64,000 nucleotides of DNA from Proteobacteria bacterium UBA981 (lineage in GTDB: Bacteria; Pseudomonadota; Gammaproteobacteria; Ga0077536). Of the stretch, positions 3,843 to 34,108 are shown piece by piece. The first letter of the stretch is position 1, and the number at the start of each line of letters is the position of its first letter. The DNA is taken from the NCBI GenBank assembly GCA_002292285.1, contig DBBP01000002.1:133214-197213 (forward strand), read 5' to 3'. The translations under genes and the position numbers were made by a program. The notes under the pieces were generated by a model. The model saw only the letters and a list, made by a program, of their open reading frames with translations, searched no databases and was not told the origin of the DNA.

Positions 3843-5192
3843 ATGAGCGAGTACGACTTCGATCTTTTTATTATCGGTGGCGGTTCTGGTGGCGTGCGCG
3901 CTGGACGCATGGCTGCAGGGTTCGGGGCTCGCGTCGCCGTTGCGGAAGAACGCTATATGGGCGGCACTTGTGTCAACGTGGGTTGCGTGCCGAAAAAACT
4001 GTTTTCCTATGCGGCCCACTTTGCGGAGGATTTCGAGGACTGCGCAGGCTTCGGATGGCAGGTCGGCGCACGCAGCTTTGACTGGCAAACACTGGTAAGA
4101 AACAAGAACACCGAAATCGAGCGCCTGAATGGTATTTATCAGCGCCTGCTGGATAACGCCGGCGCGACCGTCATACGCGGGCACGCCGAGCTCCGGGACG
4201 CCCATACGGTCGCTGTCGGGGACAAGACCTACACCAGTGAGCGCATTCTGGTGGCGACTGGTGGCTGGCCATTTGTGCCTGAATTCCCGGGTAGCGAACA
4301 CGCGATTACATCCAACGAAGCGTTTTTCCTCGATGAGTTACCGGAACGCGTCGTAGTCGTCGGCGGCGGTTATATCGCGGTCGAGTTTGCCGGCATCTTT
4401 AACGGACTGGGGTGTCAGACTTCCCAGCTCTACCGCGGGTCACTGTTCCTGCGCGGGTTTGATGATGATGCGCGCACTTTTCTTGCCGATGAAATGCAGA
4501 AGAAAGGTATCGATCTGCGCTTCGACACAGACGTGAGTGCGATCGAAAAATCAGATAACGGTTATCGTTTGCAGCTCACCGATGGCACGTCGTTCGAGTG
4601 TGATTTGGTGATGTATGCCACCGGACGCAAGCCCTTGTCTGACAAAGTTGGCCTGGAGACGTGTGGTATCGAAACGAATGCGCAGGGCGCCATTGTGGTC
4701 GACGAAAACTACCAAACCAACGTGCCGTCTATTTATGCGCTTGGCGATGTTACCGACCGTATCAACCTCACGCCTGTTGCACTCGCTGAGGGTATGGCGC
4801 TGGTATGGCATTTGTACCGGGACGCCGGCAAACCGGTCGATTACGAGTACATTCCAAGTGCGGTTTTTAGTCAGCCTAACCTCGCCTCGGTCGGCTATAC
4901 CGAAGCACAAGCCAGAGAAAAATTTGGCGACGTCACTATATTCCGCTCAGGATTCACACCGCTGAAACACACATTGTCCCGCAATGCCGAAAAAACCCTG
5001 ATGAAGCTGGTTGTCGACACGGCTAGTGATCGCGTCGTCGGAGTGCATATGGTCGGCCCCGACGCTGGCGAATCGGTGCAAGGGCTCGCCATCGCCCTGA
5101 AAGCCGGCGCGACTAAGGCACTGTTCGATCGAACGATTGGCATTCACCCCACCTCGGCAGAGGAATGGGTGACGATGCGCGAGCCGGTGTGA
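3843..5192 (+). CDS. gor: glutathione-disulfide reductase
   Basis: 449 aa; FAD GGGSGG motif, redox-active [14 protein letters not shown]-terminal [12 protein letters not shown], collinear with E. coli Gor throughout. Confidence 0.85.
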
Positions 5193-5308
5193 GCGTCATG
5201 GCACTTATGCGACATGCGACTTGGCATTCGCTCAAGCAAGCGAAGCCGGTTACGGGGCGCTGGAAACCCGTTTTTTTCCACGCAATATCGGTCCAGAGGC
5301 TAGTTACG

Positions 5309-5836
5309 ATGCGCTATTTCTCCCTCGGTATCCTCGTCGCTTCACTCACCCTATGTGCGCCGTTGTTGTGGGCCGTCGATGTCAGCGTCGGCCAACCGGC
5401 GCCGCAGTTCGAACTAACGGGTTCCGACGGCGCACTGCACGACCTTGCGAGCTATCGCGGTAAAACTGTGGTGATCGCCTGGTTCCCGAAAGCGTTTACC
5501 GGTGGCTGAACGGCCGAGTGCAAATCGCTCCGTGAGAGTGGTGAATCATTACGTGAATTCGATGTGGTTTATTTCATGGCGAGTACCGAAGACATCGCTA
5601 CCACTACTGCCTTTGCGCAAGCTAATCAGGCAGATTTCGTGATTCTGAGTGATGCAGGAAAAGACGTCGCACGGGCCTATGGGGTGTTAACACCGGCTGG
5701 ATATGCAGCACGCAGAACGTTTTACATCGATCCGACAGGCGTCGTGAGTTTCATCGATTCGCAAGTTAGCGCGTTACACGCCGGCCGCGATATCGCGGCC
5801 AGACTGTCAGCACTTGGCACCGCCGGGGCGCGCTGA
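5309..5836 (+). CDS. periplasmic peroxiredoxin (BCP/PrxQ-like) with in-frame TGA at 5507-5509 at the peroxidatic Cys position; candidate selenoprotein (or TGA-disrupted pseudogene)
   Basis: ORFs 5165-5509 and 5564-5836 share a frame and are separated only by TGA. Joined translation reads KTVVIAWFPKAFTGG-[TGA]-TAECKSLRESGESLREFDVVYFMASTEDIATTTAFAQANQADFVILSDAGKDVARAYGV, collinear with E. coli BCP (FYPKAMTPGCTVQA...VLGISTD...FTLLSD). The TGA falls exactly in the PxxxTxxC motif. ATG at 5309 with SD AGAGG; signal peptide MRYFSLGILVASLTLCAPLLWA. Confidence 0.65.
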
Positions 5837-5915
5837 AGAATTGTCAGATGTGTTGCCATTTGTTCCTGAGCGTTCCCAGCTGTAGCTTCGTCGACATTTA
5901 GCCTGACCCGCACAA

Positions 5916-6569
5916 TCACCACTGATTACGATGGATGTAGCGGTCGAGGTCCTTGCGAGGCGCAGCGCGAAACTGGGTTCCGACGGTATAAGCGACCGGT
6001 ACCATTGCCACCTGAGTATATTGTTCGTAAGGAATGCCGAGGATGTCGGCTGCCTCTCGTTCATACATAAGATGTATCGTCGTCCAGCACGTACCAAGCG
6101 AACGTTCACGCGCAGCCAGCATAAAACTCCACACCGCTGGCAATATTGAACCGAACGCACCCGCTGTAGCACTCGTGTCGAGCTTGTCGTACCGACCTGT
6201 AATGAGTGGAACGACCAGCCACGGCGCGCGGCCCATATTCTCAGCAAGATATTCAGCAGAGTCCGTCGCCCGCCCGGCAATCTCAGTCATCGACGAATCG
6301 CCTTTGTGCAAGTTGTAGATTGAATACGGTTGTTCGGCATAAACCGGCCATCCACGCCGATAAAGATCACCCAGCGCTGCGCGCTTGTCCGGGTCGTCTA
6401 CCAGCATGAAATGCCAGAATTCGCCAACCGAACCGGTCGGTGATTGAACCGCGATATCGAGACACTCGCGAATCAGTGAAAATTCGACCGGACGGTCGAA
6501 ATCCAGACGCTTACGCACTGCGCGGGTCGTGGTTAATACTTCGTCAACACCGAGATTTAGGCGGCTCAT
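5916..6569 (-). CDS. nitroreductase family protein
   Basis: 217 aa; nitroreductase-fold signature stretches (RAVRKRLDFDRPVE..., LGTCWTT). Confidence 0.65.
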   Translation of the reverse strand: MSRLNLGVDEVLTTTRAVRKRLDFDRPVEFSLIRECLDIAVQSPTGSVGEFWHFMLVDDPDKRAALGDLYRRGWPVYAEQPYSIYNLHKGDSSMTEIAGRATDSAEYLAENMGRAPWLVVPLITGRYDKLDTSATAGAFGSILPAVWSFMLAARERSLGTCWTTIHLMYEREAADILGIPYEQYTQVAMVPVAYTVGTQFRAAPRKDLDRYIHRNQW

Positions 6570-6787
6570 AGTAGCGTTCCTGCATTGTTGTTCAGTCTGA
6601 GAATTCTAGACAGACCGCGCGTATTCACAAGCGCCCCGAAAGAGCCATGCCTGAGTCGATGCAAGGGCACATTGCACTGGCTACGTTCTCGGCGCGCCTG
6701 AAGATATTTTCGGGAGTCCGCGTTCCGCGCTCATTCTCAAGCTAAACTAGAGCAACAATCACGTACAAGTCGCCAAGGAGCCCCGTC

Positions 6788-7210
6788 ATGTCGAGCGCAA
6801 TCGAAGAGATCACGATGGTCAAACAGGCCATTCACAACCCAGCAGACGCGCGGCACTTTATGCGTCTCGGCGAACCGACACATACGATAACGGCGACATT
6901 CAAAGGCATTGAATTGGCCCGCAGTAACAAAGCACTGAAGTGCAAGGAAGTAGGCTTTGATATTTACGACAGTGTCATTTACTTCCCGCGGGACGATGTT
7001 GATATGCAACGCCTGGAGAAAAATGCCAAAACGACTCACTGCCCACTAAAAGGCGATACTGAGTATTTCGATGCGGCAGGACCATCCGGCCAGATCGAGA
7101 ACATCGCGTGGTCTTACAACACGACCATCGACCGGGCCAGTGCCTTGACTGACTATATCGGATTCGACAGTCGGCAAGTTCAAATCGTAGAGCACACGGC
7201 CGAGGCTTGA
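6788..7210 (+). CDS. DUF427 domain protein
   Basis: 140 aa; YFPRDDV...THCPLKGDTEYFD matches the conserved core of the DUF427 family. Confidence 0.55.
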   Translation: MSSAIEEITMVKQAIHNPADARHFMRLGEPTHTITATFKGIELARSNKALKCKEVGFDIYDSVIYFPRDDVDMQRLEKNAKTTHCPLKGDTEYFDAAGPSGQIENIAWSYNTTIDRASALTDYIGFDSRQVQIVEHTAEA

Positions 7211-7278
7211 CGGGCGGCACTGCGCGAGCCTTGACGCCCGCACACCGGCGGCCGCTGTCCATGGGCTGGTCGGAGACG

Positions 7279-8700
7279 CTAGCGGAGTGGCTGCAGGTCT
7301 GACAACTCCGCTTGCGTCGCGCATAAGCGCCGGGTTACGACCCTAAATCGGGCAATCAGCAAGATACCGGCCGTCAACAGCGCAGTTGCCAGACCGATCC
7401 AGATGCCGCGCGCGCCATAGCCGAGCACGATGCCCAACACATAGGCAAGCGTGAACCCGAGTCCCCAGTAGTTGGCGGCGTTCAACAGCAGCGGTACGCG
7501 AGTATCTTTCAGACCGCGCAGCGAAAATGCCGCTGCCACCTGAATACCGTCGCCGAGTTGCAACACGGCCGCGATGCGGAACAAATCTGCGACCAGAACA
7601 GCGAGTTCAGCATCGTCGGTGTAGACGGCTGTAATCGTGTCGGCGAGAAAAAAAGTCGTGACCGCCGAGATTAACGACAGCGAGCCACACAACACGATTC
7701 CCGTATAGCCGATTCGCGCTGCTGCCACGACATCCAGGCGCCCTACTGCATGACCGACACAAACGGTCAGCGCCATAGCGAGCCCTAGCGGAACCATGAA
7801 CACGAGACCGGAATAGTTCAGCACGATCTGATGGCCGGCGACGGCAAATGTTCCTAATGCCCCCATCATCAGCGCGACACAGGTGAACAATCCGGATTGC
7901 AGGAACAGCGACAATCCGATCGGTACCCCAAGTGTTAACAGGCGACTCAAGGCGCGTGCTTCCGGCCAGCTCCAGTGCCGCCATAGTCCGAACGCGCGAT
8001 AGTGTCGCGACCGACCGACGTAAAGCGCCAACAGCGCGAACATGATCCAGAAGCTGATCCCGTTGCCGAGACCGCAACCCACCGCGCCAAGCTGCGGCGC
8101 ACCGAAGCGTCCGAACATGAACGTGTAATTCAGCGCGATGTTGATTGGTAACGCCACGGCCATCACAACCATGATCGGCACCGTACGACCGACGCCTTCG
8201 CTCATCTGCTTCAAGGTGTGATAAGCATAGGCGGCAAATACGCCCCAACTCAACGCGTCCAGATAACCCTGCGCCAAAGTGCATACATCTGTGGCAATGC
8301 CCATCATCAATAGCAGCGGTTCTATCGAACGCATGGCAACAACGATGATCACGCTGATCACCAAACCAAGCCAAAAACCCTGGCGCGTGTCGTCGCCAAT
8401 CTCGTGGCCGCGCCCGGCGCCGAAATGTTGCGCGACCGTTGGCCCAATCGCCATGATGGTTCCAAGCCCGAGTAGAAACAGCGCTATCCATATCCCGGAA
8501 CCAATCGCAACGGCGGCAAGCTGCGTCGCACCGAGCGTTGAGGCCATAAGCGTATCCGCGACGGTCACGCCAATACTCGAAACGTTGTTGATAATGAGGG
8601 GCAGGCCAACCCGGAAAATAATCCCGAGGTCGGATGCCAGATGTCCACCGCGCAGTTTCAGCACGGGCGATTTTCCGCTTCCAGCAGATTTAGAACGCTC
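7279..8700 (-). CDS. MATE family efflux transporter (true start likely internal to the 515-aa ORF)
   Basis: 12-TM polytopic protein with MATE-like duplicated halves. The longest ORF (to 8826) would overlap the upstream ABC ATPase gene by 127 nt, so an internal or alternative start near 8700 is more plausible. Confidence 0.65.
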   Translation of the reverse strand, partial: ERSKSAGSGKSPVLKLRGGHLASDLGIIFRVGLPLIINNVSSIGVTVADTLMASTLGATQLAAVAIGSGIWIALFLLGLGTIMAIGPTVAQHFGAGRGHEIGDDTRQGFWLGLVISVIIVVAMRSIEPLLLMMGIATDVCTLAQGYLDALSWGVFAAYAYHTLKQMSEGVGRTVPIMVVMAVALPINIALNYTFMFGRFGAPQLGAVGCGLGNGISFWIMFALLALYVGRSRHYRAFGLWRHWSWPEARALSRLLTLGVPIGLSLFLQSGLFTCVALMMGALGTFAVAGHQIVLNYSGLVFMVPLGLAMALTVCVGHAVGRLDVVAAARIGYTGIVLCGSLSLISAVTTFFLADTITAVYTDDAELAVLVADLFRIAAVLQLGDGIQVAAAFSLRGLKDTRVPLLLNAANYWGLGFTLAYVLGIVLGYGARGIWIGLATALLTAGILLIARFRVVTRRLCATQAELSDLQPLR

Positions 8701-10327
8701 AAGCGGCCGTATCAATAACAGGAACTGCAGCCAAAAGAGCGCGTGTGTAATCGTGTTGCGGCCGCTGCAGAATCTGTTCCACATCGCCGTATTCGACAAT
8801 CTGACCCTGGTACATAACCGCGACACGATGAGCGAGATACGCCACCACCCCGATATTGTGGGTGACGAACAGATAAGTCAGCCCCAGCCGCCCTTGCAGG
8901 TCGCGTAACAACTCGAGAATCTGCGCTTGTACAGAAACATCCAGTGCGCTGGTTGGTTCGTCGCACACGATCAGTTTCGGATCGACAGCGAGCGCACGCG
9001 CAATACAAATTCTCTGTCGTTGTCCGCCCGAAAATTCGTGCGGATAGCGCAAGGCGTGCAACGGCTCCAGACCGACCTGCACGAGTAGCTCGGCAACGCG
9101 CGCATCCTGCTGTTGCATGGAACCGCCCAGCTTCTGCGCGAGCATCCCCTCTTTAACGATATCGCCAACAGTCATGCGCGGGTTCATTGATGAATACGGA
9201 TCCTGGAAAACAACTTGCAACTCACCACGTAGTTTGCGCATTTGCGCACGACTCAATTCAGCGAGATTGTGCCCGTCATAGGAGACTTGTCCGTGTGCGA
9301 TGTCGGTGAGGCGTAATATGCCCTTCCCCATCGTTGTTTTGCCCGACCCGGACTCACCGACGACAGCGAGGGTCTGCCCCCGAATAATCTCGAGGTTAAC
9401 GCCATCGACAGCCTTCACATGTCCGACGGTTCGACGTAAAACACCACGCTTAATCGGGAACCAGACTTTCATGTCACGAACGGTGAGAATTGGCTGCTCA
9501 TCCACGGCCTCGGGTTGATGCCCCTCGCGCAAGCGTTTTTCCCAGCTTGGCAGCGAGTCGAATAGCTGCCGCGAATACTCATGTTGTGGGTTGCTGTAAA
9601 AAGTGTCGCGACGTCCCTGTTCGACGATGCGGCCGTTCTTCATCACCACGACACGATCGGCCACCTGGTGCGCGACCGCGAGATCATGAGTAATAAACAA
9701 AATACCCATGTTGCGCTTGCGCTGAATCGATTTGATCAACTCAAGTACCTGAGCTTGAATAGTGACGTCGAGTGCTGTCGTCGGTTCGTCGGCGACCAGA
9801 AGTTTCGGATCGCCCGCCAGCGCAATTGCGACCATCACCCGTTGCTTCATGCCGCCTGAGAACTGGTGCGGATACTCATCCAGGCGTCTGTGTGAATCCG
9901 CGATGCCGACATCATCCATCAGTTCTTGTACGCGTTGCCGCAACGCTTGCCCACGCAGTCCGTGGTGACGACGTACGGTTTCTCCGATTTGAGCCCCGAT
10001 CGTCATGACCGGATTGAGCGACGACTGCGGCTCCTGGAAGATCATGCCGATCGCGGCGCCGCGAACGTCGCGCATACGGTATTCCGGAAACTTGAATATA
10101 TCCTCGCCGGCGAGCAGGACCCGCCCACTGTGAATTCTGGCCGTTGGTGGCAACAAACGCGCAATGGCAAGCGCCGATAGCGACTTTCCACTGCCGGACT
10201 CGCCAACCAGGACGACGGTTTCTCCTGCATCGATGTCGAAACTAATGCCGTCTACGGCTCGTGTCAGCGCCTCACCGTGACCGAAGTGGATAGCGAGATC
10301 CTCCACGCTCAGCAAAGTCTCACTCAT
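8699..10327 (-). CDS. ABC transporter ATP-binding protein with two fused nucleotide-binding domains (YejF/DppDF-like)
   Basis: 542 aa; two Walker A motifs (GESGSGKS twice), two LSGGQ/LSGGM signatures, two Walker B motifs. Confidence 0.85.
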   Translation of the reverse strand: MSETLLSVEDLAIHFGHGEALTRAVDGISFDIDAGETVVLVGESGSGKSLSALAIARLLPPTARIHSGRVLLAGEDIFKFPEYRMRDVRGAAIGMIFQEPQSSLNPVMTIGAQIGETVRRHHGLRGQALRQRVQELMDDVGIADSHRRLDEYPHQFSGGMKQRVMVAIALAGDPKLLVADEPTTALDVTIQAQVLELIKSIQRKRNMGILFITHDLAVAHQVADRVVVMKNGRIVEQGRRDTFYSNPQHEYSRQLFDSLPSWEKRLREGHQPEAVDEQPILTVRDMKVWFPIKRGVLRRTVGHVKAVDGVNLEIIRGQTLAVVGESGSGKTTMGKGILRLTDIAHGQVSYDGHNLAELSRAQMRKLRGELQVVFQDPYSSMNPRMTVGDIVKEGMLAQKLGGSMQQQDARVAELLVQVGLEPLHALRYPHEFSGGQRQRICIARALAVDPKLIVCDEPTSALDVSVQAQILELLRDLQGRLGLTYLFVTHNIGVVAYLAHRVAVMYQGQIVEYGDVEQILQRPQHDYTRALLAAVPVIDTAA

Positions 10328-21506: not shown

Positions 21507-21583
21507 TGGCGGAGTGGACGGGACTCGAACCCGCGACCCCCGGCGTGACAGGCCGGTATTCTAACCAACTGAACTACCACTCC
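21507..21583 (-). tRNA. tRNA-Asp (GTC)
   Basis: Reverse complement reads GGAGTGGTAGTTCAGTTGGTTAGAATACCGGCCTGTCACGCCGGGGGTCGCGGGTTCGAGTCCCGTCCACTCCGCCA; cloverleaf with GUC anticodon, near-identical to E. coli tRNA-Asp. Confidence 0.9.
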
Positions 21584-21595
21584 GGTGGCTTTACC

Positions 21596-21672
21596 TGGTG
21601 GGTGCTGAGGGGATCGAACCCCCGACCTTCGCCTTGTAAGGGCGACGCTCTCCCAGCTGAGCTAAGCACCCG
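21596..21672 (-). tRNA. tRNA-Val (TAC)
   Basis: Reverse complement GGGTGCTTAGCTCAGCTGGGAGAGCGTCGCCCTTACAAGGCGAAGGTCGGGGGTTCGATCCCCTCAGCACCCACCA; anticodon loop CUUACAA. Confidence 0.9.
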
Positions 21673-21692
21673 AGCGTGCCCTGGAAGGCGCG

Positions 21693-21965
21693 CTAGTTTA
21701 CGGCATCCTTTAGAGCTTTGCCAGGTTTGAACCCGGGCACTCTGGATGCCTTGATTTGAATCGTCTCGCCCGTCTGCGGATTGCGTCCAGCACGGGCCGC
21801 TCTGCTTCGGACAACGAACGTACCGAAGCCCACGAGGGTGACTTGGTCGTCGGATTTAAGTGCACCAGTAATGTTGTCGATGACGGCATCAACCACTCGT
21901 GTTGCGGATGCTTTGGATAGGTCTGCCGCTTCGGCAACTGCATCAATCAATTCTGCTTTATTCAT
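21693..21965 (-). CDS. hupB: DNA-binding protein HU-beta
   Basis: 90 aa; [12 protein letters not shown]...[26 protein letters not shown] is the canonical HU sequence. Confidence 0.9.
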
Positions 21966-22124
21966 CGGTGTCGTCCCCTTAGGAATCTTGTCCGGCGTAG
22001 GTGGAAAGCTGACTTGGCGACCAGAACCCGAGTGTTCTTCGCGGAAAGTGCCTGCGTTATATCAAGCACCGTATAGACCGTCAAGCGAGCAAGCATGCAC
22101 GTTAGTAGCGTTGTGATTTAAACC

Positions 22125-24533
22125 TCAATGATGCCGCAATACATCCGCGTCGTCGTCACCATCGGACTTTTCTTTACCCACCTCATTGGCGTCTTCAGGA
22201 GCGGCCACAATGGGTTCAGGAAGACGCTGAAGTGCTATCGCAAATACTTCATCTATCCATTGCACTGGTTTGATTTCGAGACCCTGTTTTATGTTCGCAG
22301 GGATTTCCTTGAGCTCCCGCTCGTTCTCTTGTGGGATCACGACTTCCTTGATTCCTCCACGCAAGGCTGCGAGAAGTTTCTCCTTTAACCCTCCGATGGG
22401 CAGGACTTCTCCGCGCAGGGTGATCTCTCCGGTCATGGCGACACTCCGTTTCACAGGGATGCCAGTGAGAGCGGAAACCAGCGACGTACACATGCCAACG
22501 CCGGCGCTCGGACCGTCTTTGGGTGTGGCGCCTTCAGGCACGTGGAAATGCGTATCGTGGTCACGGTAAAAATCCGGTTTGATGCCGAGCGACTGGGCGC
22601 GACTTCGGACGACCGTCATGGCGGCTTTGATGGACTCCTGCATCACGTCACCAAGGCTACCCGTATAGATTTCTTTGCCTTTGCCAGGCACAACCACCGA
22701 CTCAATCGTCAGCAGATCGCCGCCAACTTCAGTCCACGCCAGGCCAGTAACCTGGCCAACCCGGTCCTCGGTATCCGCAAGGCCATAACGAAACTTCTTG
22801 ACGCCCAAGTACTTCTCTAGCGTCTTGGAAGTGACATTGGCGGACGTCACAGCCGGCTTTTGCAGTATCTCTTTGACGACCTTACGGCAAATGTTTGCCA
22901 GTTCCCGTTCCAGACTACGTACCCCGGCTTCGCGCGTGTAGTAGCGCACGATGTCTCGCAGGACGCCTTCGGAGACCTTGATTTCGGCATCCTTTAGTCC
23001 AGCATTCTTAATCTGCTTGGGTAGCAAGTACTTCTGCGCGATGCTGACCTTCTCACCCTCGGTGTACCCCGAGATCTTAATCACTTCCATTCGGTCTAGA
23101 AGCGGCCCGGGTATATTCAGACTATTTGCGGTCGTAATGAACATGACATCGGAGAGGTCGTAGTCGATCTCCAGGTAATGGTCGTTGAATGAATTGTTCT
23201 GCTCGGGATCCAGAACCTCCAGTAAAGCCGACGCCGGATCGCCACGAAAATCCATTGCCATCTTGTCAACTTCATCGAGCAGGAATAGCGGGTTGCGGGT
23301 TTCAACTTTCGCCATGTTCTGCAATATTTTGCCTGGCAAAGAACCGACATAAGTTCGTCTGTGTCCACGGATCTCCGCTTCGTCGCGGACGCCACCCAAG
23401 GACATGCGTACAAATTTGCGATTGGTCGCTCGCGCGATCGAGCGGCCGAGCGATGTTTTACCGACTCCCGGCGGGCCCACCAGGCACAAGATCGGACCTT
23501 TCATCTTCTTGACCCGTTGCTGAACGGCAAGGTACTCAAGGATCCGTTCCTTGACCTTCTCAAGTCCGTAATGGTCCGCCTCAAGAATCTCTTCCGCGCG
23601 ATTGAGATCGCGACTGATTTTAGAGCGTTTCTTCCAGGGTACGGAAAGAATCCAGTCAATATAGTTACGCACCACTGTCGCTTCGGCGGCCATCGGCGAC
23701 ATCATGCGAAGTTTCTTAAGCTCGGCGTCGGCTTTACCCCGCGCCTCCTTGCTCATGCCTGATTCGGCAATTCGGATGGCAAGTTCCTCGAACTCGTTGA
23801 CACCGTCCTCGCTCTCGCCGAGTTCGTTTTGGATCGCCTTCATTTGCTCGTTCAGATAGTACTCGCGCTGGCTCTTTTCCATCTGTTTCTTAACGCGACC
23901 GCGCAGACGTTTTTCGACCTGCAGCAGATCGATCTCGCCTTCCATTAACAAGATCAGGTGCTCAAGCCTTTCCCGTAACGCAACGATCTCGAGTACCCCT
24001 TGTTTGTCCTCGATTTTTACCGCCATGTGGGCGGCAATCGTGTCTGCGAGGCGCGACGGATCATCGATACTGGATAGTGAAGAGATAATCTCTGGAGGAA
24101 CTTTCTTATTCAGTTTTACGTACTGATCAAACTGTGTCATCAATGACCGACTGAGCACTTCGGCTTCCCGGTCTGTCACTTCTTCGACGTCAATTTTCTC
24201 CACTTTAGCCGCGTACAAATCGCTGGTTTCCGTAAACGATTCGATACGACCACGATACTCGCCTTCAACTAGCACCTTGATCGTCCCGTCCGGGAGCTTC
24301 AGGAGCTGAAGAATGTTCGCAACGGTACCAATCGAGTAGATATCGGCCGGTTTTGGATCGTCGTCGCCGGCACTTTTTTGCGCAACCAATAGAATCTGTT
24401 TGCCGGCTTCCATCGCGCGCTCGAGCGCGCGTATCGATTTTTCACGCCCAACAAAAAGTGGGATCACCATGTGCGGGTAAACAACCACATCACGCAATGG
24501 CAAGACGGCTAGTTCACAGATTGATTCACTCAT
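22125..24533 (-). CDS. lon: ATP-dependent Lon protease
   Basis: 802 aa; N-terminal [27 protein letters not shown]+ Walker [10 protein letters not shown], protease domain with catalytic PKDGPSAG. Confidence 0.95.
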
Positions 24534-24699
24534 TACGGGGTTACTCCGCCCGGCCGGCTACATCGAAAAGCAGATGCCTCGAATGCAGCCGTCGGCATTG
24601 GGGAATTGACCGGCACCACGGTGCCGAATTTTGAATGTGGGAAGCGGGCCGCAACAAGTTCATTAGTTGGCGGCCGCAGCAGCGAGGAAATAGCCAACC

Positions 24700-25977
24700 C
24701 TAATCTGGGGCCGCCTTGGGAATTTCCGGGCTCTCGTAAATCACAAGAGGATTCGACTCACCCTTAATCGCACCTTCGTCGACCACCACTTTGGTCGCGT
24801 TGTCCAACGAAGGCAGGTCGTACATTGTGTCGAGCAGACTCTGTTCGAGGATCGAACGCAAACCACGCGCGCCCGTTTTACGCTCGACAGCACGCGCAGC
24901 AACCGCCCGCAGTGCGTCTTCGCGGAATTCCAGTTCGCAGGATTCCATTTCGAAAAGTTTCGCATACTGTTTGGTTAGCGCGTTCTTTGGCTCAAGCAAG
25001 ATCTCAACGAGCTGGTCTTCATCCAGTTCGTCCAGTACCGCGAACACGGCCAGGCGGCCGACGAACTCAGGGATCAGACCGTAACGAATCAGATCTTCGG
25101 GTTCAACTTGATGCAGCAGTTCGCCAGACGTTTGCTTGTCATCTTTGGTTTTCACCTCAGCAGAAAATCCAATACCACCTTTTTCTGAGCGGTCCCGAAT
25201 GATCTTATCGAGTCCTGAGAAGGCGCCACCACAGATAAACAAAATATTGCGTGTATCAACCTGCAGGAATTCTTGCTGAGGATGCTTTCTGCCACCTTGT
25301 GGCGGGACGGAAGCGACCGTTCCTTCGATGAGCTTAAGCAATGCTTGCTGCACGCCCTCGCCCGAAACATCGCGGGTGATCGAGGGGTTATCCGATTTGC
25401 GAGAAATTTTGTCTATTTCATCAATATAGACAATGCCGGTTTGAGCTTTCTCGACGTCGTAATCACATTTCTGCAAAAGCTTTTGAATGATGTTTTCGAC
25501 ATCTTCACCAACGTAGCCCGCTTCGGTGAGGGTCGTGGCATCGGCTATCGTAAACGGAACGTTTAACAACCGCGCCAGCGTTTCCGCCAGCAAGGTCTTG
25601 CCGCTACCAGTCGGACCGATTAGCAGTACATTGCTTTTGGCCAACTCGACATCGTTTTGTTTGACCCGGGTGTCGAGCCGTTTGTAATGGTTGTACACCG
25701 AGACCGAGAGAATTTTCTTTGCCTGATTCTGACCAATCACGTACTCATCAAGTATCGCGTTGATTTCGTGAGGTGTCGGCAGTTTACTACCGACGCCGCC
25801 AGGCGATTTCTCCTGGATTTCTTCCCGGATGATGTCATTACACAGCTCAACACATTCGTCGCAAATAAATACGGACGGTCCCGCAATTAGTTTGCGCACC
25901 TCGTGCTGGCTTTTGCCGCAGAAGGAACAATAGAGCAACCGATCGCCATCGCCCTTGGAGTTCTTGCTATCACTCAT
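24700..25977 (-). CDS. clpX: ATP-dependent Clp protease ATP-binding subunit ClpX
   Basis: 425 aa; zinc-binding CSFCGKSQ...CDEC, Walker [12 protein letters not shown] loop region. Confidence 0.95.
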
Positions 25978-26010
25978 CGCACAAGTCCTCGAGATCTCAT
26001 TCGTTACCGC

Positions 26011-26664
26011 CTAGCTTTCCGCAGTGGGCGTTGCACGTTTCGCCAGCATGCCGTCGATAATACCGTAATCGACAGCCTCGTCGGCGCTCATGAAACGATC
26101 GCGATCGGTGTCGCTGGCGATTTTGTCCAAGGACTGGCCAGTATGGTTGGCCAGAATTTGATTCAGACGCTCGCGCGCATACAGGATTTCCTTGGCATGG
26201 ATGTCGATATCCGACGCCTGCCCCTGAAATCCGCCCAGGGGTTGGTGAATCATCACCCGTGAATGCGGCAAACAATAACGCTTACCAGCTGCACCGCCGC
26301 ACAGTAAGAGCGCCCCCATGCTCGCGGCCTGACCGATGCACATGGTGCTAACGTCCGGCTTAATAAATTGCATGGTGTCATAAATTGCCAGCCCGGCGGA
26401 GACAGAGCCGCCCGGCGAATTGATGTAGAAATGGATGTCCTTATCGGGGTTTTCCGATTCCAGGAACAACAGTTGGGCCACAATGACATTGGCCACGTAG
26501 TCCTCGACCGGACCAACGAGGAATATCACCCGTTCTTTGAGAAGACGGGAATAAATGTCGTAAGCGCGCTCTCCGCGTGCTGACTGCTCGACAACCATCG
26601 GCACGAGGTTTAGCGCGTGCGGGCCTGAGCCCATATTTGAATCTGAGTAATCTATAGACTTCAA
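26011..26664 (-). CDS. clpP: ATP-dependent Clp protease proteolytic subunit ClpP
   Basis: 217 aa; catalytic triad context [14 protein letters not shown]. Confidence 0.95.
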
Positions 26665-26678
26665 GAGCTTACCTCTAT

Positions 26679-27995
26679 CTATGAGCCAGTCTGAACCGGG
26701 TTCATCAAGGCGTCAAACGCCAGATCAAGTTCGGTCACTTTCGCCTGTTCGGCAATCCAATTAACAGCATCTTCTTCGAGACATAAGGCCTCGACCTGCT
26801 GCATTTGTTCCGGATTATCGTAATACCATTTAACCACTGCTGCCGAATCTTCGTAGCTTGAGGCCATATTTTCGATCATTTTGCGAACCCGTTCCGCGTC
26901 TGCCACGATTTCGGCCTTTCTGACGACTTCAGCCATTATCAGCCCAAGTTTGACCCGACTGGTGGCTCGCTCGCGCACCGAGTCCTCAAAACCCTGCCCA
27001 CCTGCCGATGGGTCGATTCCGCGCATCATCATTTCCTGTGCGACTTGCTGACGTAAACGTCCGGATTCGGCCTCGACCATGGCGTTCGGAACCGCGAAAT
27101 CGTTCGCCTCGGCGACCTTCTCCATGACTTCGTTGCTGAATCGCTGGCGCAGAGCCCGTTCGCGCTCCTTCTCCATATTGGCGCGAACGTCGGTGCGAAA
27201 AGCGTCGATGTCGCCTCCGCTAACTCCGAACTTGTCGATAAACGCCTCGTCGAGCTCCGGGAGTACGGGCTCGGAGACCTTGTTGATCGTAATCTCGAAC
27301 CGAACAGCCTTGCCGGACAAGTCCTCTTTGCCATAATCGTCCGGGAAAGTGAGATTGAGATCGGCGGTCTCACCGGCGCTTTTGCCGGCCAATCCGTCCT
27401 CGAAGCCCTCAATCATCATCCCAGTACCAAGCTCAAGGTCGAAGTCCTGTCCGGAACCGCCCTCAAAAGGCTCGCCTTCGATTGTGCCCTCAAAACTGAT
27501 TTGGAGTTGGTCGCCATCAGTCGCCCCGCGCTCCACCGCCACCCATTCCTTGTTCTGTTCGCGTAACTTTTCGATCATGAGATCGACGTCGGCGTCGCCG
27601 ATGTCGCAGGTATGGCGCGTGAGCGCCACCTGCTCAAACGGAGCCAACTCTATTTCCGGGAATACTTCGAAAGTCGCGGTGTAGGTCAAGCCACTCCCCG
27701 TCTCGCTGGAAACCGGATCGATGACTGGCTGTCCGGCGGGCCGCAAAGCCTCTTGCCCCATTGCTTCGCCGAAAGTGCTCTGCACAACCTCGCCCACGAC
27801 TTCATCACGGACACGCTGGCCAAATCGTTGTTTCAGCACTGTCATGGGCACTTTGCCCTGACGAAAACCGTCGATACGTGCGGACTTACGCATATCTTCG
27901 AGCCGAGACTTAACTTCGGTCGAAATACGTTCTTCTGGCACTTCGACCGTCATACGACGTTCAAGCGCCGATGATTCTTCAACGGAAATTTGCAT
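26679..27995 (-). CDS. tig: trigger factor
   Basis: True start [20 protein letters not shown] matches the E. coli MQVSVETTQGLGRRVTITI start; the track ORF has an 8-codon N-terminal extension. FKBP-type PPIase domain in the middle. Confidence 0.9.
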
Positions 27996-28074
27996 GGGTA
28001 AACCGAATCTATAGTGCAAATGTAGCCCCGCGACAGTCGCGGAGGCATCAATTCGCTGTTGAACATTTATGGAT

Positions 28075-28159
<85 letters not shown>

Positions 28160-28410
28160 GGCTGCCGAACCATAATTAGAACGTCGCCCAGGCCCCTGAA
28201 ACCAGGCCCGGAGTGCCGTTACCAGCGCCGATGATCAAGAGCCAGCGAGCCCTTGCCGCGGGCGGCGGCGCGCACTGGCGGGCGCCATTATAGGTGCAGC
28301 CTCAACACGTTGGTAGCCCCGCAATTGCCCGCCAAACTGCGCTTGCATACTATACTGGCCAGCGCGAACCGACTGATGTTGGGACGCTCCCACAAATTGA
28401 GGTGCGACCG

Positions 28411-28890
28411 ATGAATAAGCTTTTGCCTGCGTGTGTATTCGCCTTAGTTGTGATGAACACCCCGAATGTGTCGGCGGTCACCGTTGTCGAATGCGTCGAT
28501 GCTGATGGCAACACCTCATTCCGGGACCAATGTCCGCCCGGCTCAAGCCAAAAAGGCAAGAAGGAAATCAGCGGCCTGGGGGGCAACGACGGCCCGGACC
28601 TGAGCGCCGTTGCAGCAGCAAATCCGATTACGCTCTATACCGTGCCGGACTGCGATGCCTGCGATCTGACCCGCAACGCCCTGAGCGGACGGGATCTGCC
28701 CTTCACTGAGAAAAATGTCCAGGACAACGCGGAAATGCAGGAAGAGCTGAAAACGGCCACAGGCGGACTAACCGTTCCGGGCATCGTGATTGGCGACAAA
28801 GTGCTCACCGGCTACAGCCGCGATGCAATTGACAGTGCGCTAAACGGGGCGGGCTATCCGGCTCCAGCTGAATCCGGAACGCCGCAATAA
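28411..28890 (+). CDS. secreted DUF4124-glutaredoxin fusion protein (CxxC = CDAC)
   Basis: ATG at 28411 with GAGG SD; signal peptide MNKLLPACVFALVVMNTPNVSA. A DUF4124-like segment (VECVDADGNTSFRDQCPPG) is followed by a glutaredoxin-fold domain: ITLYTVPDCDACDLTRNALSGRDLPFTEKNV...GLTVPGIVIGDKVLTGY. Confidence 0.6.
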   Translation: MNKLLPACVFALVVMNTPNVSAVTVVECVDADGNTSFRDQCPPGSSQKGKKEISGLGGNDGPDLSAVAAANPITLYTVPDCDACDLTRNALSGRDLPFTEKNVQDNAEMQEELKTATGGLTVPGIVIGDKVLTGYSRDAIDSALNGAGYPAPAESGTPQ

Positions 28891-28902
28891 TCCCCCGACA
28901 GT

Positions 28903-29349
28903 TTGTTACTGGCCGTGTTTAATTCGTCAATCGATGCTGAAGCGGCATTTTACGCCGCCTTTAGCAACGCCGATATTGATGCCATGGCCGCTATCTGGAT
29001 GCCGGGATCAGATGCAATCTGCGTTCATCCCGGCGGCCCGCGTCTATGCGGTCTGGACGCAATACGCCAGAGCTGGTCACTGATTCTGAGCGATTCGATG
29101 CCGCGGCAGTTCGAACTCCGTGGGCGCCTCATTATCGGCTCCGGTGATTGCCGCATTCACACTCTTGAGGAAAACATCAGTGTACCCGGGACCGAATTCG
29201 TCGCGCCGCCGGTGCTGGCGACGAATATTTATCAAAAACATCGGGATGGCTGGTTGATGGTGCTACATCACGCCAGTGTGTCTCCAGAATCAGTCGCGGA
29301 CACGAAAGATACCGACAAGCCGCGCCATTCATCGCAGGTTCTGCATTAG
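28903..29349 (+). CDS. NTF2-like (SnoaL/DUF4440-type) small protein
   Basis: 148 aa; AEAAFYAAFSNADIDAMAAIW is the typical SnoaL-like N-terminal helix. Start codon uncertain (TTG 28903 or GTG 28915). Confidence 0.45.
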   Translation: MLLAVFNSSIDAEAAFYAAFSNADIDAMAAIWMPGSDAICVHPGGPRLCGLDAIRQSWSLILSDSMPRQFELRGRLIIGSGDCRIHTLEENISVPGTEFVAPPVLATNIYQKHRDGWLMVLHHASVSPESVADTKDTDKPRHSSQVLH

Positions 29350-29478
29350 ACCAAATTGAGACGACGACGACGGTAACCCAGGTTGGGTGCCGCTTGGCGG
29401 TTTCGCAATATCCTGCGCTAGGATTACGTCGGGAGTCGCGCGATCAAAGTTCGGAATTCTTCAATCCAACGAGAAAAT

Positions 29479-29554
<76 letters not shown>

Positions 29555-29612
29555 GCTAAAGCGGAAGGTATCTCGGCAATTCGCTCGTGAAATTGCTGAA
29601 ATATTTATTTAG

Positions 29613-29689
29613 TGGGGTGGACGATGGGGTTCGAACCCACGACATCACGGACCACAACCGTGTGCTCTACCAACTGAGCTACGCCCACC
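29613..29689 (-). tRNA. tRNA-His (GTG) with encoded G-1
   Basis: Reverse complement G-GTGGGCGTAGCTCAGTTGGTAGAGCACACGGTTGTGGTCCGTGATGTCGTGGGTTCGAACCCCATCGTCCACCCCA. The extra 5' G pairs with discriminator C73, the histidine identity element. Confidence 0.85.
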
Positions 29690-29796
29690 ATAGGACTAAA
29701 ATGCTTGGATTGAACAGCAACCGCGTTCGGTGCGAGCTAGCCGCTCACCCTGCCACAGTAACGTGCAATCCGTCACTCGAGCCAATCTTCATAGAT

Positions 29797-29873
29797 TGGC
29801 GCGCCTGGCAGGATTCGAACCTGCTACCCTCGGCTTAGAAGGCCGATGCTCTATCCATATGAGCTACAGGCGC
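29797..29873 (-). tRNA. tRNA-Arg (TCT)
   Basis: Reverse complement GCGCCTGTAGCTCATATGGATAGAGCATCGGCCTTCTAAGCCGAGGGTAGCAGGTTCGAATCCTGCCAGGCGCGCCA; anticodon loop CUUCUAA. Confidence 0.85.
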
Positions 29874-29941
29874 ACGACATCGGACGCCTGAACGTGACAC
29901 CCTGCAAGTACAAGTTTAAACCTTGCGACTGCCAACTCAAA

Positions 29942-30018
<77 letters not shown>

Positions 30019-33088: not shown

Positions 33089-34108
33089 CTATACGGGGTG
33101 AGCCAGCACGAGCGAAAATTTCGTGCCTGCCGATTCGTAGTGGTTGGCAATCGTGAAGCCCGCCTCACGCAACAGGCGCTCGAGCTGCGCACGGGTGAAC
33201 TTCCTACTGATTTCCGTGAGGATGTGGTCGCCCTCCTGGAATTCAATAACCTGATCGAGAGCGTTCAGCCGAACTTGTTGCCCGCACATTGAAATCAAGT
33301 GCATCTCGATGCGCGATTCCAGAGGATTAAAGTGCGCATAGTGCTCAAAACTTTCAACGTCGAAATCCGCACCAAGCTCCCGATTCAGCACGTGCAGCAG
33401 GTTGAGGTTAAACGCGGCGGTGATGCCGGCGTCGTCGTTGTACGCAGCGTGCAGAACATCCGGCTGCTTGACCCGATCGGCGCCTATGAGCAGGCTGTCG
33501 CCAGGCGACATGGTGGCGCGGAGTTCAGCAAGAAAATCACGCGCGTCAGATTCGGCGAAATTACCGATTGTGCCGCCCAGAAACACCACCAGATTTCGTC
33601 CCTTGTGGCGCGGCAGATTGCCGAGCCCGGCCGTGTAATCCCCAACCAGCGGACGCACGTCGAGCCACTCATAGTCCGCCTGTAGAGATTCGCTCGAACT
33701 GACCAGAATTTCATCGCAAACATCGACCGGTGAGTAAACCGGATACCACGCTTGCTCAGTACAGGCATCGAGCAGATAGCGTGTCTTTCGGGACGTACCG
33801 CTACCCAGTTCTACGATGCATTCCGGTTTCTCCGCGGCGATAACTTCGCTTGCGATCTCACGAAGCAAAGCCGCCTCGGTCCGGGTTGGATAGTATTCAG
33901 GAGCGTCGCAAATTTGATCGAATAGCAGTGACCCGCGCTCGTCATAAAAATATTTGGGCGGCATTGTGCGAGGTTCGAGCAAAAGCCCGCTTTCGACGTC
34001 CTCTGACAGGCTGTTTATCGACCGTGTCGGGAGGATTTGTTGACAGGCCACGGGGACGGAAGTTGCTGTGTTCACGGTAGAATCCTTGTGCGATACTCGC
34101 TTGCGCAA
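33089..34108 (-). CDS. EgtD-family SAM-dependent histidine N-alpha-methyltransferase homologue
   Basis: 339 aa; PPKYFYDERGSLLFDQICDAPEYYPTRTEA, ELGSGTSRKTRYLL, LVVFLGGTIGNF, AAYNDDAGITAAFNLNLLHVLNRELGADFDVESFEH are collinear with M. smegmatis EgtD. Confidence 0.75.
   Translation of the reverse strand: MRKRVSHKDSTVNTATSVPVACQQILPTRSINSLSEDVESGLLLEPRTMPPKYFYDERGSLLFDQICDAPEYYPTRTEAALLREIASEVIAAEKPECIVELGSGTSRKTRYLLDACTEQAWYPVYSPVDVCDEILVSSSESLQADYEWLDVRPLVGDYTAGLGNLPRHKGRNLVVFLGGTIGNFAESDARDFLAELRATMSPGDSLLIGADRVKQPDVLHAAYNDDAGITAAFNLNLLHVLNRELGADFDVESFEHYAHFNPLESRIEMHLISMCGQQVRLNALDQVIEFQEGDHILTEISRKFTRAQLERLLREAGFTIANHYESAGTKFSLVLAHPV

Follow-up and report, generated by a model that had tools for sequence, protein, structure and literature searches.

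A PrxQ-like peroxiredoxin gene with an in-frame TGA at the peroxidatic position very probably encodes a selenoprotein

The DNA analyzed here, referred to as the window, is a stretch of 64,000 nucleotides. Positions 5309-5836 of its plus strand very probably constitute one functional gene, encoding a secreted PrxQ/BCP-like peroxiredoxin with selenocysteine (Sec) at its peroxidatic residue. An earlier, sequence-only reading had argued for Sec recoding of the internal TGA and against a decaying pseudogene, and that argument is now supported by conservation of the TGA, by a covarying hairpin that follows it and by purifying selection on the codons downstream.

Reading frame and identity of the product

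Translation of the plus strand from the ATG at 5309-5311 to the TGA ending at 5836 gives a single frame of 175 codons, Sec67 included. The sole internal in-frame TGA is that at 5507-5509; it is followed by 108 sense codons, without stops or frameshifts, and then by the terminator TGA at 5834-5836. Two ORFs of the mechanical list, 5165-5509 and 5564-5836, lie in this same frame and are separated by the internal TGA, as the sequence-only reading had described; its statements that the ATG is preceded by a Shine-Dalgarno sequence and that no further stops follow the TGA also agree with the translation. The features of the gene are collected in Table 1.

Table 1. Features of the putative Sec-peroxiredoxin gene (window coordinates)
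Feature	Position	Strand	Basis and details
Shine-Dalgarno-like GAGG	5296-5299	+	Direct sequence reading; spacer to ATG 9 nt
Sec-peroxiredoxin, complete CDS (putative)	5309-5836	+	Translation; Pfam AhpC-TSA, E 2.9e-29; collinear with full-length homologues
Predicted signal peptide MRYFSLGILVASLTLCAPLLWA	5309-5374	+	Sequence; putative cleavage after LWA
Active-site motif P60-K-A-F-T64-G-G-U67 (PxxxTxxU)	5486-5509	+	Alignment A1; motif of Sec-Prx in PMC13188914
In-frame TGA, putative Sec codon U67, peroxidatic position	5507-5509	+	Translation, alignment, genome scan
TGC, Cys71, candidate resolving Cys (UxxxC), 4 residues past Sec	5519-5521	+	Invariant in A1; putative role
SECIS-type hairpin	5524-5542	+	5' arm 5524-5530 AUCGCUC, loop 5531-5535 CGUGA, 3' arm 5536-5542 GAGUGGU
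CGC, Arg135, conserved Prx active-site arginine	5711-5713	+	Invariant in alignment A1

The 175-aa read-through product matches the Pfam profile PF00578 (AhpC-TSA) over profile positions 1-123 of 124 with 102 bits (cutoff 26), a full-length domain match above the gathering score that places it in the peroxiredoxin superfamily; it also matches Redoxin (E 8e-22). At E up to 1e-5, 1,200 homologues came out of a protein search; among the full-length ones, the best are 47-58% identical and carry the name peroxiredoxin Q/BCP in their source records. The window product was aligned with 15 full-length homologues that were not chosen on Cys71 (alignment A1). All 15 have Cys in the peroxidatic column, and it is in this column that the TGA is placed; P60, T64, G65, G66, T68, C71 and R135 are invariant. 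The segment W-F-P-K-A-F-T-G-G-C-T-A-E-C is near-invariant across A1, and the window has FPKAFTGG-U-TAEC in its place; the flanks of the UGA are thus conserved on both sides, in A1 as well as in a set of 116 Cys homologues. With these residues unchanged throughout A1 and the TGA in the column of the peroxidatic Cys (Cp), the active site (PxxxTxxC(U) plus Arg: P60, T64, U67 and R135) is complete apart from the TGA-encoded Cp itself. R135 would serve as the active-site arginine that peroxiredoxins conserve. These data bear out the earlier proposals that a product of about 175 aa is collinear with BCP/PrxQ, that the TGA replaces the peroxidatic Cys in PKAFTGG-TGA-TAEC and that a further Cys follows four residues later.

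The best matches among solved structures are BCP-type proteins (archaeal BCPs and mycobacterial AhpE, E 1e-15 to 1e-12), yet the product scores only 66.9 bits against NF006960, the E. coli Bcp model (cutoff 140), and 55 against NF053650 (cutoff 260). We therefore describe it as PrxQ-like and not as a BCP/PrxQ equivalog. The product has a hydrophobic N-terminus, and the N-terminal 12-mer is uncharged in 114 of the 120 Sec homologues among the matches listed. A signal peptide and a periplasmic enzyme had been proposed for this gene; the hydrophobic segment is indeed there, and it is from this segment that we infer export to the periplasm.

When the codons past the TGA were compared with those of the six nearest relatives among the matches listed, pN was 0.25-0.39 and pS, which is saturated, 0.70-0.83. 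The values are much like those of the portion before the TGA. This downstream part is 59-67% identical to the four nearest relatives listed, and its codons are, judging from these comparisons, under purifying selection. TGA terminates 12 of the 30 long ORFs in the window, and the gene at 5309-5836 as well; the genetic code is therefore standard and the internal TGA a special case. A reassigned code with TGA as a sense codon is ruled out by the same counts.

Conservation of the TGA and of a hairpin downstream

The glutathione reductase (gor) protein encoded upstream was found on 21 public contigs. At all six places shown from among these contigs, the peroxiredoxin had been called in two pieces of 66 aa and 86-90 aa, labelled 'AhpC-TSA' (in the window 5309-5509 and 5564/5576-5836; loci L121-L125). 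The DNA of five of the contigs carrying gor, from ENA, Logan and JGI assemblies, was compared, and in each the gene is nucleotide-identical to that of the window, TGA included. Resequencing had been suggested earlier as a check that might reveal TGC or TGT at this codon; the five contigs have the identical TGA.

A collection with one genome per species, covering 185,579 species, was scanned with the pattern CCN NNN GCN TTY ACN GGN GGN TGA ACN NNN NNN TGY, corresponding to PxAFTGG-TGA-TxxC. Matches were found in at least 120 species genomes, and all 120 that are listed are peroxiredoxin homologues with TGA at Cp. By our own estimate this pattern of 19 fixed bases should match about once at random in the collection, so the result is far beyond chance. 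In 117 of the 120 listed matches the frame past the TGA runs open for 103-131 codons to a stop (423 in L007), and in the remaining three it reaches the end of the locus still open. The hosts of the listed matches are MAGs and one isolate not labelled as a MAG, and they belong to at least five phyla: Acidobacteriota (many of them Vicinamibacterales), Planctomycetota, Verrucomicrobiota, Gammaproteobacteria/Pseudomonadales, Acidimicrobiia and a few others were seen. Among the matches listed, the proteins nearest to the window product share 60-68% identity with it, and each of them is a TGA form encoded in a gammaproteobacterial MAG. By similarity to the MAG loci L011, L022 and L090, the window comes from a marine gammaproteobacterium.

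The gene order gor-Prx(TGA)-MATE is kept in at least five gammaproteobacterial MAGs, whose gor products are 52-79% identical to that of the window (gor lies directly upstream of the Sec-Prx in window 3843-8826 and in L011, L022, L090, L096 and L076). These five syntenic genes are positional orthologues that bear the TGA, and the UGA is thus conserved in other species both at these loci and across the at least 120 species genomes. It had been considered that close relatives might show a fragmented locus with further lesions; the five orthologues keep the TGA and an open frame downstream. Glutathione reductase is a cytoplasmic enzyme, and for this reason we attach no function to its adjacency.

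Some of the listed loci have features of their own. Four Sec-Prx genes (L012, L019, L062 and L115) contain an insertion of about 22 aa right after the hairpin region (...CDSLRVSVIDDPLSV...); three of these are labelled as Planctomycetota or a family therein, and one as an unclassified bacterium. Two distant Sec-Prx copies (L069 and L075) are located on one 10.2-Mb Marinacidobacterales chromosome, OZ253507.1. The orthologue is further carried by the complete chromosomes OZ244144.1, CP170502.1, OZ253950.1 and JBFXAQ010000001.1.

The 60 nt after the UGA were folded in each TGA gene, and a hairpin common to nearly all of them was found. It has a 7-bp stem and a 5-nt loop and begins 14 nt past the UGA, with its arms at positions 18-24 and 30-36 counted from the U of the UGA. 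In the window, all seven pairs form and the hairpin, with its small G-containing apical loop, has an energy of -6.1 kcal/mol in this register. As a control, metagenomes supplied 116 distinct genes that share the motif and encode Cys. All seven pairs form in the same register in 89 of 119 TGA genes among the matches listed, as against 3 of 116 Cys genes; the loop is CGUG[A/C] in 106 of the 119 and heterogeneous in the Cys genes. The median energy in the fixed register is -8.5 kcal/mol for the listed TGA genes and +0.35 for the Cys genes, and the two sets differ in pair counts (Mann-Whitney p = 5e-29) and in local MFE (p = 2e-17). Among the closest Sec/Cys pairs, with 70-86% identity (L070 and L193, which are very close, and five further pairs), every one of the six Cys members shown has fewer stem pairs than its Sec partner, and four of them no longer have the CGUG[A/C] loop.

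To score covariation, 113 distinct TGA genes from the matches listed were aligned without gaps; 92.8% of the cells hold standard pairs. Two-sided changes were seen in five of the seven pairs, for example C-G to G-C 30 times at 24/30 and U-G to G-C 11 times at 19/35. There were 84 double-change cells, compared with 19 in shuffled alignments, and none of 500 shuffles reached 84; slid registers all score far below the hairpin's own. Since the hairpin overlaps the codons K-S-L-R-E-S-G, some of the compensatory changes alter amino acids (KSLRESG versus KALRDSA). As published (PMC1088965), the bacterial SECIS element is a stem-loop that follows the UGA directly and has a G in its small apical loop. 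The hairpin fits this description and lends Sec recoding independent support. The earlier suggestion to look for a SECIS element past 5507 has thus yielded a conserved, covarying structure that is specific to the TGA genes. Being so uniform and covarying, it might serve as the starting point of a covariance model with which such genes are detected automatically.

By local MFE (-7.2 kcal/mol) the window hairpin, in which two pairs are G-U and the closing pair is A-U, is among the weakest 8% of the listed Sec set; in register and loop it is clearly Sec-like. Single-sequence folding of 5495-5580 gave z = -0.23, no better than shuffles, and the MFE structure missed the hairpin, so that one sequence alone is uninformative. 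No Rfam SECIS or tRNA-Sec family matched in the whole window at the gathering score, or in 5400-5700 at E up to 10. It was also observed that UGAAC (window 5507-5511) can pair with GUUCGA of conserved F-D codons some 48-54 nt downstream (window about 5555-5561). This pairing, which occurs in the MFE folds of L002, L015, L025, L081 and L112, would form a long lower helix around the SECIS hairpin; both of its sides are invariant, which leaves no covariation to score.

Decoding of the UGA and alternative explanations

The genes for Sec insertion were sought near the peroxiredoxin. Neither the 64-kb window nor its flanks (10 kb per end, about 20 kb in all) nor the 120 related loci listed yielded any selA, selB, selD or tRNA-Sec. 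ARAGORN detected no tRNA-Sec in the window, 125 loci and two flank loci, and a Pfam scan of 39 window ORFs gave no SelA, SelB, SelD or formate dehydrogenase. Regular expressions for the N-terminus of SelD, the PLP site of SelA and the G1 motif of GTPases, a weak test, had no match in a six-frame translation of 1.57 Mb. Among 11 candidates for selenoprotein genes in the window, each an in-frame TGA with coding-like sequence around it, only the peroxiredoxin has a redox motif or homology support; the other ten were judged to be adjacent genes or off-frame. Judging from the intact gene and its SECIS-type hairpin, the organism probably still decodes Sec.

Other genes were noted in the region. An EgtD-like histidine-specific SAM methyltransferase is encoded at 33089-34108 on the minus strand (Methyltransf_33, E 1e-108), which suggests ergothioneine-type thiol-histidine biosynthesis. 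On the minus strand, a tig-clpP-clpX-lon cluster (22125-28019) is flanked on one side by a tRNA Asp-Val pair and on the other by a group of Leu, Lys, His, Arg and Pro tRNAs (21507-30018), and a 198-aa ORF with a C-terminal glutaredoxin domain is found at 28294-28890. Beyond the 3' end of the window, two neighbouring GST genes (178 and 369 aa) and a fusion of glutaredoxin with rhodanese (308 aa) occur at L247 6429-9177, in a record that stems from a marine metagenome assembly.

We have weighed four other readings of the locus. The lineage might have inherited a Sec-peroxiredoxin and the genome then lost its Sec machinery, in which case translation stops at 5507 and the gene is heading for decay. 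The lack of sel genes and tRNA-Sec in the approximately 84 kb examined is in keeping with such a relic, as is a hairpin weaker than in most of the listed relatives. However, 84 kb is a small fraction of a genome, the stem retains all its seven pairs and the loop its canonical CGUGA sequence, and the 108 codons downstream remain free of stops and frameshifts, with pN well below pS and the identity to the four nearest listed relatives given above; we regard a relic as quite unlikely. A recent pseudogene, in which an ordinary nonsense mutation from TGC or TGT struck the catalytic codon by chance, would require a single base change, and gene callers do report two fragments. It is nevertheless extremely unlikely in view of the same TGA in at least 120 other species, syntenic orthologues included, the compensatory changes in a hairpin specific to the TGA genes, and the purifying selection on the downstream codons.

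An error of sequencing or assembly in the window has only the prior probability of such errors to recommend it and is barely conceivable, given the nucleotide-identical gene and TGA on five public contigs from ENA, Logan and JGI. It is also very unlikely that near-cognate or suppressor decoding inserts one of the standard amino acids, Cys or Trp, at the UGA. Sec insertion at this site is something that we infer, and TGA and Cys interchange frequently in the family, both of which leave room for such read-through; but a conserved hairpin with a small G-containing loop right past the UGA is the hallmark of SelB-dependent decoding (PMC1088965), and TGA serves as a normal stop for other genes of the window.

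The favored reading thus remains that of a Sec-containing peroxiredoxin, for which we propose the following mechanism. The CGUGA-loop hairpin, 14 nt past the UGA, would recruit SelB-GTP-Sec-tRNA(Sec), and Sec would be inserted at 5507-5509 in place of termination, as in the bacterial SECIS mechanism; by this analogy the recoding is most likely SelB-dependent. The predicted signal peptide would direct the protein to the periplasm. There T64 and R135 would activate the selenolate of U67 for the reduction of H2O2 or organic hydroperoxides, and the selenolate would become a selenenic acid, which could condense with the invariant C71 (UxxxC) to an intramolecular selenenylsulfide; a thioredoxin-like periplasmic reductant would then re-reduce this bond. 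Atypical 2-Cys PrxQ is the model for this chemistry, which is most likely of the atypical 2-Cys peroxiredoxin type.

Relation to known selenoproteins and peroxiredoxins

Sec and Cys forms of this protein are interleaved: for 10 of 119 listed Sec forms the best match is a Cys form, with identity of up to 86%. This fits the frequent Sec/Cys exchange described in PMC1794560, and the close pairs suggest that some Sec/Cys switches are recent. One Cys-form homologue, L155, has a stop eight codons past Cp (TAECKSLR*); either true pseudogenization or faulty assembly may explain this stop, and the TGA genes, by contrast, are clean. The window gene is covered neither by an NCBIfam equivalog nor by an Rfam SECIS family. 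We tentatively raise the possibility that it represents an exported sub-clade of Sec-PrxQ in its own right, marked by UxxxC and occurring in at least 120 species, mostly uncultured, from at least five phyla. Its members would have switched repeatedly between Sec and Cys, gene callers would systematically split them, and their role would be that of a selenoenzyme acting in the periplasm against peroxides in aerobic bacteria of sea and soil. Such a sub-clade would have its own uniform SECIS class, with a 14-nt spacer, a 7-bp stem and a CGUGA loop over the K-S-L-R-E-S-G codons.

The practical value of these observations lies in annotation, the gene having been split into two 'AhpC-TSA' fragments wherever its calls were shown. 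The mis-annotation is probably systematic across the at least 120 genomes with the TGA-interrupted gene. As a consequence, an exported antioxidant enzyme, and with it evidence of selenium utilisation, probably goes unnoticed in a large number of uncultured Acidobacteriota, Planctomycetota, Verrucomicrobiota and marine Gammaproteobacteria. With so many close Sec/Cys pairs, the family also offers a natural data set for asking under which conditions a peroxiredoxin favors Sec over Cys. What is known of Sec decoding and of peroxiredoxins is left unchanged by the window gene.

Peroxiredoxins with Sec in a TxxU motif are an established family (PMC1088965, PMC2398784, PMC13188914). The bacterial 'Prx' selenoprotein family (TxxU; COG1225/pfam00578) was described by Zhang, Fomenko and Gladyshev in 2005 (PMC1088965), 253 of its genes were reported from the GOS survey (PMC2398784), and a 2026 review lists Prx with the conserved motif PxxxTxxU (PMC13188914). 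The family, known since 2001-2005, is not confined to a few bacterial lineages as had been stated earlier. The window gene is a further, mis-annotated member of it, and the call is correct but ordinary. Shared with the family are the AhpC-TSA domain, Sec at the peroxidatic position of PxxxTxxU, a SECIS element right after the UGA, widespread Cys homologues and a marine source (the contig flanking the window comes from a marine metagenome assembly). The likeness is one of description, as opposed to an alignment of the sub-clade with published sequences such as WP_011365628.1. A predicted signal peptide, an invariant Cys at UxxxC and a uniform 7-bp/CGUGA hairpin distinguish the window gene, being absent from the available portions of the published descriptions.

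The hairpin resembles SECIS elements of the fdhF type and of Rfam in being a coding-region stem-loop just 3' of the UGA with a small loop and a conserved G-U. It differs in that no Rfam SECIS family matches it even at the most permissive E value used; it has a conserved sequence of its own, because of the conserved codons that it overlaps. With PrxU of Eubacterium acidaminophilum (Sohling et al. 2001), the selenocysteine-containing peroxiredoxin cited in the review (PMC13188914), the window protein has in common Sec at the peroxidatic position of a peroxiredoxin. It is, however, PrxQ/BCP-like, 175 aa long and provided with a predicted signal peptide, and with 50.4 bits against a cutoff of 270 it falls outside the 233-position PrxU model (NF040737, peroxi_PrxU).

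The thiol peroxidases of the BCP/PrxQ type share with the window protein the fold, the PxxxTxxC active site and a second Cys shortly past Cp. Its best solved-structure and NCBIfam matches are found among them; the set compared comprised E. coli Bcp (NF006960), Sulfolobus Bcp1 (3drn) and Bcp4 (3hjp), an Aeropyrum protein (2ywn) and M. tuberculosis AhpE (1xvw). The window protein differs from these in a score below the equivalog cutoff, in its predicted export, in the UxxxC spacing, which in E. coli Bcp is CxxxxC, and in the putative Sec that takes the place of the peroxidatic Cys.
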